The notes: a model not told the origin generated them from the sequence alone. 63,943 nucleotides of DNA, filler included, from Dimargaris cristalligena (GCA_003614675.1; 4 parts of 4 records of this genome joined end to end with filler, not necessarily neighbours in it), one strand, 5' to 3'; positions 56,924 to 59,334 are shown, counted from the whole stretch's first letter. Numbers and translations: made by a program.

Positions 56924-59334
56924 CTAGCTGGCGAAGGTCTTTAACTGGCCATTAAGCCAGTCTTCGTCAAACTGTTCCTTGTCTTGTAATTGGTAGGCCT
57001 AAAATTAAAGCAAAAATATCCACGTAGTAATTCCCTGAGGTTAGGTATGCCGAAGATCTGACTGGGTGAATGGTGAGACGAGAGGGGGAGGTGAGGGAAA
57101 TAGTGGTAGTGTATGATGGCGGTGTACAGAGTTTGGAGAGTGCCCCACTTTTCTGTAGCAAAATAGCCCCAAAGAAACTAAGAAGTAGCCGTTGCTCATT
57201 ACGGTGCAGATGGGGTGAAATAGAGGAAACGGAACTCCGGTTACAATTATAAATTCGGGGTTTCCCACCCTCTACCCTAGAAGTAGTACATCTAGGCCCC
57301 ATGTTTACTATGAGCATCCAATTAGAAAAGCAGTGTAACCAGTTGCAAAGACCCCCCTCCCCCCAGCCCTTAAAAGAAGGGTAGAAAAAGATGATTCAAA
57401 ACTTTTGGTTGGTAAACCACTGTCGATCCCGAAGGCTATGGGGTGTATCTGAGCTTTGCAATGACCGGGAAACAGCTATTTGGCTCCATTAAGGTTAAAA
57501 AAAAGTCCAGTTAATCCACTCTACAAAGAAAATCATAATATTACCTTGCCAAGGTCGTTTGTGTTTTGGAAAATGGGCTGGGCACTGGCGTAGAGCATGC
57601 GAGCCTCGGGGGAAGCTGATCAGTGGGGAGGGGGCCAAATAGGATCGAATATCAAAATGCGGTAGGAATAGACCCCCACATATGGCAATATAGCAAAATA
57701 TGGAGCATACGAATATACATAAAATAGATAAATTGTTAGTTTCATCCCAATGTACAGATGGGGAAAAATGCCGGCATGGTGTAATGGAGGCTGAGTGAGG
57801 CTATTCCTCCACAACTGGTAGATGTGTGACATTTCCACTTTCTAAATAGAATATTCGTCTGTAAAAGAGGCCGGTGGAAAAAAGGTAGGGGGGGAAGTTC
57901 ATCCATCATATTACAGGACTCCCCCCCACGACTACCTTCGGAGTTTCCCTATAATTGTGTAGGGGGGCTCTTACCGGAGGTCGGACAGTAGAAGACGAAG
58001 ACCAACGGGTAGGAAATCCGGCCCCTGTACTCGAACTTGCGTTGTTGAGAAATTACATGTTCAAAAATACAAAAATATAATGGTGTCACACGAGCATCTC
58101 GCGTTAATACAGGGCGGGGTTCTACATGAAGATGGGTGACTCGTAGCGACCGGATGAATACGGTTTAGGCCAATTCCGGAAAACAGCCCCCCGCTGTTGG
58201 AGATGGGGGGTTGGTTGAGTATCAACAGTGGCAACCTACCTTGTAGCTCAAGACTACATACGTATTGGCCGAAACGGATAAAACGGGGAAATCAGATGGA
58301 GAGTGGATACACATATATAACATAGTAAAGTACAGAGAATAAAGGAGTGGTCGAAGTTAAGGATTACACATGCATGTCAATCTAGAGCCCTAAAGGGGTC
58401 CGACTAGAGGGAGTTGGTAAAAGATCTCGGTGATAGATAATAATTGTAAGTATACATAGGTCACATGTAGTGAATCATGCAAATGGCTAGTGTGGCAATT
58501 GATAGCAGATAGTATAACAGAGGATATCTAGGAGCGTCGTCAGGCAATTCTTCGATCAAGTCTTCGAAAGTTACGTCTTTATGGACCTCGTCTTCGACCA
58601 CGCTGAGTTTCTTCCGGTCGATTTTCGCTTTATATTGTTAGTTTACGAGTGGGAGAGGAGAGCCGTAGCGGACCCAAAGGACGATGATATGATGCCATAC
58701 ATAAAGATACCTATATTAAAGTACTACTATTAGATTGGCCATCAAGGCGATTCCCTATTACATCAGAGAATAGTGCCAAATTTCGTCAACCACGGGCCAC
58801 AATAGGTCTCATATTGAAAGTAGACATGCTATGGAGGGGGGGTTCGGGTAAGGTAAGACAAGGTAGAGTGGATAAGTAGCAAGTAGTCCTGCATCAAACG
58901 GGAATAACCTACCGAAAAAGGCGGACATGGTTCCGCTTTGTTTGGCCAAGCGGAAGGACCGGAGACTCTTGGTCAGTTCGGGGTCCACGGTGCAGGTGAC
59001 GGTGGCCTAATTTAAGAGGGGAGTGGTGGGGGGGGGGTATATGGTTCAGTATTGAATTATCACCTGTTCGATATGGCCCCAAGTTCCGATGAGGTCAGTA
59101 CAATTTAATGATTACCCCAACTAGGGTCGGTATAGGTATGCCACTCATAGTTTTCCCATCTCACCCCCTCCTACTCGTACGGATTCCCCCCAGAGGTAAA
59201 TGGGGGTCCTGGCGGCAATCCTAGTGAATGCCCAAGGCCATTCCAGCAACAAAGCTGCTCGTGGAAGAGGGTACACGGTGGGGGAGCGGAGAGGATACTG
59301 CCAATAACCTATGGGGATTCCCAAGGCCTACCAT
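56924..59334 (-). CDS. GMF1: Glia maturation factor (ADF-H domain, Arp2/3 debrancher, Aim7/Gmf1), 141 aa, 7 exons: 59334-59332, 59006-58913, 58627-58528, 58261-58240, 58035-57975, 57615-57545, 56998-56924
   Basis: Spliced product M-ATVTCTVDPELTKSLRSFRLAK...KIDRKKLSVVEDE...EELPDDAPRYVVLSYK-FEYRGRISYPLVFVFYCP...RMLYASAQ...DEDWLNGQL. Exons total 426 nt with consistent phases. Not in the ORF track. Confidence 0.93.
58262..58527 (-). other. U12-type (minor spliceosome) AT-AC intron, 266 nt, in the GMF gene
   Basis: 5' site ATATCCTC, U12-like branch sequence TCCTTAAC at 58363-58356, 3' end CAATAC. Removing it rebuilds the conserved P-R-Y-V-V-L-S-Y. Confidence 0.9.

Follow-up and report, generated by a model that had tools for sequence, protein, structure and literature searches.

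An AT-AC intron of the Dimargaris cristalligena GMF gene with a putative branch site 95 nt away from the protein-restoring acceptor

A short, fixed distance between the branch site and the acceptor is treated as a defining feature of minor (U12-type) introns and is built into the programs that catalogue them. The available text of Turunen et al. (2013; PMC3584512) describes canonical U12 introns as having no pyrimidine tract and a branch-to-acceptor distance that is optimal at 11-13 nt, and cataloguing pipelines, according to the accessible portions of their descriptions, score branch sites just within -40/-45 to -5. Here, we describe an AT-AC intron in the gene for glia maturation factor (GMF, ADF-H domain) of Dimargaris cristalligena, in which the consensus branch motif, TCCTTAAC, is located 95 nt upstream of the acceptor that restores the protein. 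The gene belongs to a mould-parasitic fungus and lies on the minus strand of the analyzed DNA, with the AT-AC intron splitting an Arg codon. The window, that is, the whole stretch of DNA that was analyzed, comprises 63,943 nt, filler included, from the assembly GCA_003614675.1 (four parts of four records joined end to end with filler, not necessarily neighbors in the genome). If the far AC is spliced productively, the distance rule is not universal and current surveys are blind to such introns; confirmation by RNA would mean that the far acceptor breaks a rule of minor splicing.

With canonical U12 introns, as the accessible text on them presents these, the window intron shares the 5' site, the branch motif and the AT-AC termini, but its branch-to-acceptor distance is 95 nt rather than 11-13 nt, and its spacer is pyrimidine-rich, whereas the canonical introns are without such a tract. 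Because the pipeline scan is limited to the interval given above, the arrangement in the window is invisible to these programs. In the terms of a 2024 study (PMC11347168, as far as its available text goes), such a pipeline would see at this locus the minor 5' site, no minor branch and a major-type pyrimidine tract; unlike the case treated in that text, the window has a perfect minor branch motif, situated outside the scanned stretch, and the intron is the ortholog of a genuine minor intron, not an intermediate form. Physarum polycephalum, in the accessible part of the report by Larue, Elias and Roy (bioRxiv 10.1101/2020.10.12.336362), likewise departs from the canonical U12 3' signals in a lineage-specific way, but there the motif changed (TTTGA, with a compensating U12 small nuclear RNA [snRNA]) and the distance of 9-12 nt was kept, whereas in the window the motif is canonical and the distance changed. 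Distant-branch U2 introns resemble the window intron in their long AG-free pyrimidine tract and in the RNA pairing proposed to hide nearer acceptors; these introns, however, are spliced by the major spliceosome to AG acceptors, whereas the window has an unstructured spacer and the candidate pairing involves the upstream exon. Such distant U2 branch points, with AG-exclusion zones, have reportedly been described by Gooding et al. 2006 and Meyer et al. 2011, along with structure-assisted long distances in yeast.

Acceptor choice and the GMF reading frame

Taken singly, the exons are too short to produce strong matches. Exon 3 alone matched Pfam Cofilin_ADF at E = 0.065 (13.4 bits, under the 22.4 cut-off), and exons 3 and 5 aligned collinearly with PDB GMF chains at E = 0.08-0.2; the PDB search with exon 4 or exon 6 alone returned no homolog. 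The 58-aa open reading frame (ORF) of exon 3 had no homolog among longer proteins, nor in a first metagenome scan, and comparison with proteins of similar length retrieved a 92-aa model from Dimargaris xerosporica that is 78% identical. Used as the query, the D. xerosporica protein identified 169 relatives at E <= 0.001, and 33 of these, with lengths of 130-150 aa, were used to build a GMF profile, against which ten isoforms constructed from coordinates were scored, with the splice junction assigned from the reading frame and homology.

The isoform that uses the far AC (58262) ranked at the top of the 10, with either choice of the last exon (153.1-157.7 bits), and six truncated or exon-skipped isoforms scored 77-88 bits. 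Its junction, 58528|58261, yields a 141-aa product that aligns without gaps to the relatives through PRY-V-VLSYK-FEY-RGRISYPL and has the hallmarks of a full-length GMF family member (ADF-H, Pfam PF00241, a domain carried by the relatives P0001 and P0004, together with the invariant PRY and SYPL); P66, R67 and Y68 are invariant in the family alignment (A1). The far AC is the sole acceptor giving a normal GMF protein.

That the gene model is wrong at this point, the actual intron being of the GT-AG type (donor GTTATA at 58518, acceptor ..TTGAG|C at 58247) or ending at the in-frame AC 58325, is very unlikely. Although both alternatives stay in frame to the natural stop, their isoforms score 139.5 and 132.4 bits, respectively, that is, 13.6-25 bits under the far-AC isoform; furthermore, the GT-AG form loses part of a strand, the AC 58325 form replaces the invariant Arg, and GTTATA does not resemble the donors of the nine U2 introns modeled in the window, which read GTAGGT, GTAAGT and GTAAGA. 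Orthology to an AT-AC intron, considered in the following section, also speaks against both forms.

Orthology to a published minor intron

A metagenome scan with alignment A1 identified 59 GMF loci, and in 58 of these the PRY codons are plain coding sequence. In the remaining locus (L059), the exon ends with ..CAG CCA AG, the intron starts with ATATCCTTT and ends with TCCTTAGC-N7-AC, and the next exon begins with FIVYSYKYQHDDGRVSYPL; the codon, the phase and the termini are identical to those of the window intron, and the branch A is 11 nt from the AC. The human GMFB gene has a minor intron as its intron 4 (5' TCG|atatcc and 3' ttctttaacttgagaaaaac|CTT), which served as a minor-intron donor cassette, according to the available text of Meinke et al. 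(2020, eLife, PMC7244321). By our reading of the sequence given there, the site is again the Pro-Arg|Phe codon and the branch-to-acceptor distance is 12 nt.

Human GMFB intron 4, as far as that text presents it, and the intron of L059 occur, like the window intron, in the same gene family, at the Arg codon of ..LP..PR|[FY].. and in phase 2, and all have AT-AC ends, ATATCC and a branch motif of the TCCTT/TTCTTTAAC type followed by N7-N9 and AC. The difference lies downstream: in human GMFB and L059, that AC is the acceptor (branch A at 12 and 11 nt, respectively), whereas in the window the AC in the same layout results in a stop codon, with the exon starting another 85 nt downstream and, unlike in the other two, shortened to 22 nt by an additional U2 intron. 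Judging from the shared position and motifs, the window intron is the ortholog of the published minor intron, human GMFB intron 4, and because of this orthology it is almost certainly U12-type; in the best explanation of these similarities, it goes back to an intron of the common ancestor that fungi share with animals.

Four public GMF models from Dimargaritales break exactly at the AT-AC intron. The D. xerosporica model reads ..DDAPRYPLFQAH and then stops, the D. verticillata model ends with ..DDAPRYP, the Tieghemiomyces parasiticus model, which also seems to translate intron 2, ends with ..DDAPR, and the Dispira parvispora model reads ..DDAPRYPWLVTPLGYYKFENKGR. The corresponding locus tags are H4R35_001169 for D. 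xerosporica, H4R34_004498 for D. verticillata, IWQ60_003546 for T. parasiticus and IWQ62_002591 for Dispira parvispora. Because AG|ATATCC translates to 'RYP', the 5' site appears to be conserved in three further species (D. xerosporica, D. verticillata and Dispira parvispora). The AT-AC intron explains the truncated or distorted GMF models in these four related genomes. A Coemansia model passes straight through the site as PRYVIVSYRF, and among the matches to the ORF of the window's own exon 3 there was no protein model that holds this exon. The orthology to human GMFB intron 4, the counterpart in L059 and the four broken Dimargaritales models, all recognized by sequence comparison, are new here with respect to an earlier note on this DNA.

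We also considered a different class of introns with the same termini. U2-dependent AT-AC introns, reportedly described by Wu and Krainer 1997, are said to have AT-AC termini, U2-type 3' signals and a 5' site that resembles that of U2 introns and does not contain ATATCC. Assignment to this class was rejected, given that it needs a U2-like 5' site and the 5' site here is ATATCCTC; the U2-like features of the intron are confined to its 3' region.

A search for other U12 introns in the window found homologous exon ends at this site only, among 13 [AG]TATCCT sites, and the counts of the motifs in the window are at chance level, with RTATCCTY present 9 times versus 10.0 expected and TCCTTRAY 10 times versus 9.7 expected. 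An Rfam scan of the window returned no family at the gathering score. A literature search retrieved no paper joining Dimargaris with a minor intron or Kickxellomycotina with the minor spliceosome, and in the supplement of PMC10639083 the species is just a name in a tree figure.

As a separate observation on L059 (2595-2610), a GMF-beta-like locus, AATCCTTTTGC comes after the ..TGC TTC ATT TT end of the exon past its U12 intron, and no GT lies nearby; either the next donor of this locus is seemingly non-canonical and U12-like, or the contig has a defect at this point.

Branch motif, spacer and the far acceptor

The 5' site, ATATCCTC, agrees with the U12 consensus [A/G]TATCCTT at 7 of 8 positions, and the branch motif, read as ATCCTTAAC, agrees at 8 of 9 positions with TTCCTTRAY, which is the top match in the intron, and at the same 8 of 9 with TTCCTTAAC. 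Within the intron, TCCTTAAC is present once, whereas, by arithmetic from the window count, ~0.005 copies are expected by chance in 266 nt on one strand. The whole window contains six copies versus 2.44 expected, a number reached in 2 of 100 shuffles; the other copies are coding (14665, in an MYG1 exon), run antisense to an ORF or lack a 5' partner. The earlier note had placed the branch site ~95 nt from the 3' splice site, and A58357, in this sole TCCTTAAC of the intron, is indeed 95 nt from the last intron base of the frame-restoring acceptor. Its description of a pyrimidine-rich, AG-free stretch with skipped ACs holds as well: the 94 nt past the branch motif are 71% pyrimidine (27 C + 40 T), AG is absent from them, and AC occurs six times if the terminal one is counted, so that five ACs are bypassed before the productive AC. 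The two nearest, ACs 58350 and 58347, run into a TGA at 58294-58292, as the same note had stated; ACs 58330 and 58303 lead to a TAG at 58256-58254, and AC 58325 produces an in-frame extension of 63 nt.

The productive AC, at 95 nt, is far beyond the distance expected of a U12 acceptor (branch A ~10-20 nt away, with an optimum of 11-13 nt and up to 40-45 nt in the pipelines), which is observed just for the unproductive AC 58347 (10 nt); the spacer, moreover, carries before the 3' site the kind of polypyrimidine tract that U12 introns are expected to be without. A full canonical 3' module, TCCTTAAC-N7-AC, survives at 58363..58347 in the layout seen in L059. Its AC is unproductive, and the conserved exon starts 85 nt beyond it.

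This module raises the possibility that AC 58347 (or 58350) is the acceptor truly used, the ~85 nt preceding exon 4 being a recent insertion or expansion; most or all transcripts would then carry a stop codon, and the gene would be a young pseudogene or one kept low by unproductive splicing. We consider this improbable, even though TCCTTAAC-N7-AC is a complete canonical 3' end with the L059 layout, U12 acceptors are picked by distance, and the gene model is imperfect, its last intron needing a GC-AG donor; GMF is also a small gene that is non-essential in yeast. All downstream exons are open and encode the full 141-aa GMF, with the invariant PRY and the conserved SYPL and MLYAS, the spacer, which occurs once in the window, forms no tandem array, and the proximal ACs would lie under a perfect helix, described below.

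An alternative that retains the far AC is that the branch is a cryptic, lineage-specific one close to it, with the distal TCCTTAAC-N7-AC being an ancestral relic or decoy silenced by the helix with exon 3. Candidate positions are A58279 in GUUUUAUCC, 17 nt from the AC, and A58292 in UCUGAU, 30 nt from it; an example of such a proximal sequence is UUUUAUCC, to be compared with the canonical UCCUUAAC. The appeal of this scenario is that the distance rule is kept in every studied system and that A58279 is at a canonical distance; in Physarum, as the accessible report describes it, the U12 branch motif and the snRNA co-evolved to the weak-looking TTTGA, and a helix over the proximal ACs would fit the suppression of a decoy equally. 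Nevertheless, we regard it as unlikely, given that the last 60 nt of the intron contain no 9-mer matching TTCCTTAAC at 5 or more of 9 positions, and that a perfect decoy with a perfectly spaced AC would give rise to transcripts with stop codons and should be selected against. Furthermore, the distal motif is probably the ancestral site, because the chance of a new perfect 8-mer is ~0.005 and the N7-AC layout equals that of L059.

The reading that we favor, if tentatively, is distal branching at TCCTTAAC coupled to a long-range choice of the far AC. Most likely, the U11/U12 particle would still recognize ATATCCTC and TCCTTAAC, and the lariat would form at TCCTTAAC, with exon ligation skipping the AC 10 nt downstream and taking the AC 95 nt downstream. 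The ACs at the canonical distance could be locked in a 10-bp helix with exon 3, masking the ancestral acceptor, and the open, pyrimidine-rich and AG-free tract, as in ordinary introns of this genome, would favor the far AC. Exon-definition effects exist between AT-AC and GT-AG introns, and on this basis the strong U2-type donor 22 nt past the acceptor could help define the micro-exon; in addition, a branch complex ~35 nt from the U2 donor might clash with that donor, which is a possible reason for the distal branch. What the sequence establishes is the anatomy, the orthology and the restoration of the protein by the far AC alone; which branch is used, whether the far AC serves in vivo and what the helix and the downstream donor contribute are elements that we infer.

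A broader version of this reading, conceivable but rather doubtful, is that the minor spliceosome of Dimargaritales has lost the distance rule, such that it branches at the canonical UCCUUAAC and ligates 95 nt away, past five ACs, with the ancestral acceptor silenced by the exon helix and the far one selected under the guidance of the pyrimidine tract and the U2 donor. If true, an intron shared with human GMFB would represent a natural experiment that traces the U12 distance constraint to early recognition of the 3' site as opposed to the catalytic core.

The modified 3'-site selection suggested by the earlier note corresponds to the leading reading, which fits the long AG-free 3' ends of the neighboring U2 introns. 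Nine such introns were hand-modeled in the window by frame and motif, including four in GMF, two in the neighboring gene for a pyridoxal phosphate (PLP)-dependent enzyme and three in an MYG1-like gene, and span 57616-61016 (minus strand) and 14132-14932 (plus strand). In all 10 introns, counting the AT-AC one, the 55-173 nt that precede the 3' site lack AG; AG-to-AG gaps of at least 55 nt account for 298 of 7310 in the window. In six of the nine U2 introns, the CTAAC/CTAAT nearest the 3' site is 41-120 nt away, with ACTAAC 120 nt from the 3' site in GMF intron 5 and distances of 90 and 69 nt in the introns of the PLP-dependent enzyme gene. Given these AG-free 3' ends and distant CTAAC/CTAAT motifs, the AT-AC intron shares the 3' architecture of its U2 neighbors, and ordinary introns here also appear to reach acceptors far from branch motifs. 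It may be that branch points far from the acceptor are usual in this fungus, a general claim limited by the fact that long AG-free runs are also frequent in coding DNA.

The structure-mediated looping that the earlier note had proposed for the spacer is not supported: 58262-58356 has a minimum free energy (MFE) of -2.2 kcal/mol, a value equaled or bettered by 198 of 200 shuffles (z +1.94). The folds of the whole intron (z +0.62) and of a 591-nt piece extending from exon 3 to the end of intron 4 (z +0.57) are unremarkable. Within the latter, however, the MFE and centroid folds both contain a perfect 10-bp helix between exon 3 and the intron. Its intron arm opens on the final base of the branch motif and closes on the C of the second AC, so both ACs at the canonical distance would be base-paired; a 10-mer match covering both ACs was found in 68 of 20000 Markov-simulated pre-mRNAs. 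Another predicted pairing connects the last 12 nt before the productive AC with intron 4, at a level (11/12) reached in 50 of 5000 simulations.

Several observations weigh against distal branching. ACs 58330, 58325 and 58303 are located in the open spacer without the proposed mask and are left unexplained by it. In all described systems the U12 branch-to-acceptor distance is short, with the optimum of 11-13 nt in the available text of PMC3584512 and 9-12 nt kept by the transformed Physarum system, as far as can be gathered from the accessible part of bioRxiv 10.1101/2020.10.12.336362. Across the window, AG-free runs of at least 40 nt follow RCTAAC in 12 of 46 cases versus 22 of 115 for control hexamers, that is, the runs are not clearly longer, and the U2 branch sites were assigned by motif alone in hand-modeled introns. 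None of the three folds of the spacer, the intron and the 591-nt piece is stabler than its shuffles, and both helices, which were noticed after the fact in predicted folds, are leads rather than findings.

Nested or recursive splicing was also considered and rejected, as the spacer is without AG and there is no plausible internal donor-acceptor pair preserving the family sequence. The same applies to an origin of the spacer as a repeat or tandem duplication, with no second copy in the window and no TRF array. In a related observation, positions 58262-58363 (minus strand, 102 nt) can be divided into six 17-nt units, of which units 1, 2 and 6 open with TCC and close with AC; the identity of units to unit 1 is 9/17, which faintly suggests that the 3' module was duplicated long ago but is too weak to use.

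Coordinates and anatomy of the GMF gene

Table 1. Features of the GMF locus around the AT-AC intron (window coordinates)
Feature	Coordinates	Strand	Detail or evidence
GMF exon 3	58528..58627	-	..KIDRKKLSVVEDEVHKDVTFEDLIEELPDDAP + AG, the first two bases of the Arg codon; ORF; PDB GMF chains align
Exon-3 arm GUGGUCGAAG of predicted perfect 10-bp helix	58592..58601	-	MFE and centroid folds of 591-nt piece
U12-type 5' splice site ATATCCTC	58520..58527	-	Motif match
AT-AC intron, 266 nt, phase 2 in Arg codon	58262..58527	-	Begins ATATCCTC, ends ..CAATAC
Consensus U12 branch-site motif TCCTTAAC; putative branch A 58357/58358	58356..58363	-	Best match in intron
Intron arm CUUCGACCAC of predicted 10-bp helix	58347..58356	-	Last base of branch motif to C of second AC
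Two canonical-distance ACs (58351-50, 58348-47)	58347..58351	-	7 and 10 nt from A58357
Spacer, branch motif to productive acceptor	58264..58355	-	Pyrimidine-rich, AG-free, unstructured
Last 12 nt before productive AC	58264..58275	-	Predicted to pair 11/12 with 58174..58163
Predicted productive 3' splice site AC (..CAAUAC|G)	58262..58263	-	Best-scoring of 10 isoforms
Micro-exon 4, 22 nt	58240..58261	-	Third base of Arg codon + YVVLSYK
U2-type 5' splice site GTAGGT of next intron	58234..58239	-	Starts 22 nt past AC
Partner arm in intron 4	58163..58174	-	In MFE fold of 591-nt piece
GMF exon 5 (FEYRGRISYPLVFVFYCPTS)	57975..58035	-	ORF, PDB match, profile

At the position of exon 4, the relatives read PRY[IV][VI]LSY[KE]. 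The site of the U2 intron after ..S[YF][KE] (..SYK in the window) is common to the fungal metagenome loci L019 and L039, both of which are without the U12 intron, and it is because of this extra U2 intron that exon 4 is a micro-exon. The segment YVVLSYK (58240-58261, minus strand) is accordingly flanked by a U12-type and a U2-type intron.

The last GMF intron (57476-57549, minus strand) seemingly needs to be of the GC-AG type, with the donor GCAAGG at 57549 and the acceptor ..AAATAG at 57476. This choice keeps the C-terminus of the family (..SLQ..W..), whereas the neighboring GT donor, GTAATA at 57544, leads to no GMF-like ending; owing to the need for a GC-AG donor, the 3' end of the gene model is less certain.

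At the other end of the gene, a second U12-like donor, GTATCCTC (59291-59298, minus strand), is located 33 nt into GMF intron 1, in frame with the ATG and exon 2, and is probably a chance occurrence, because RTATCCTY is no more frequent in the window than expected by chance. At the 3' end of the same intron (CTCTTAAATTAG), a branch-like motif is located just ~6 nt from the AG.

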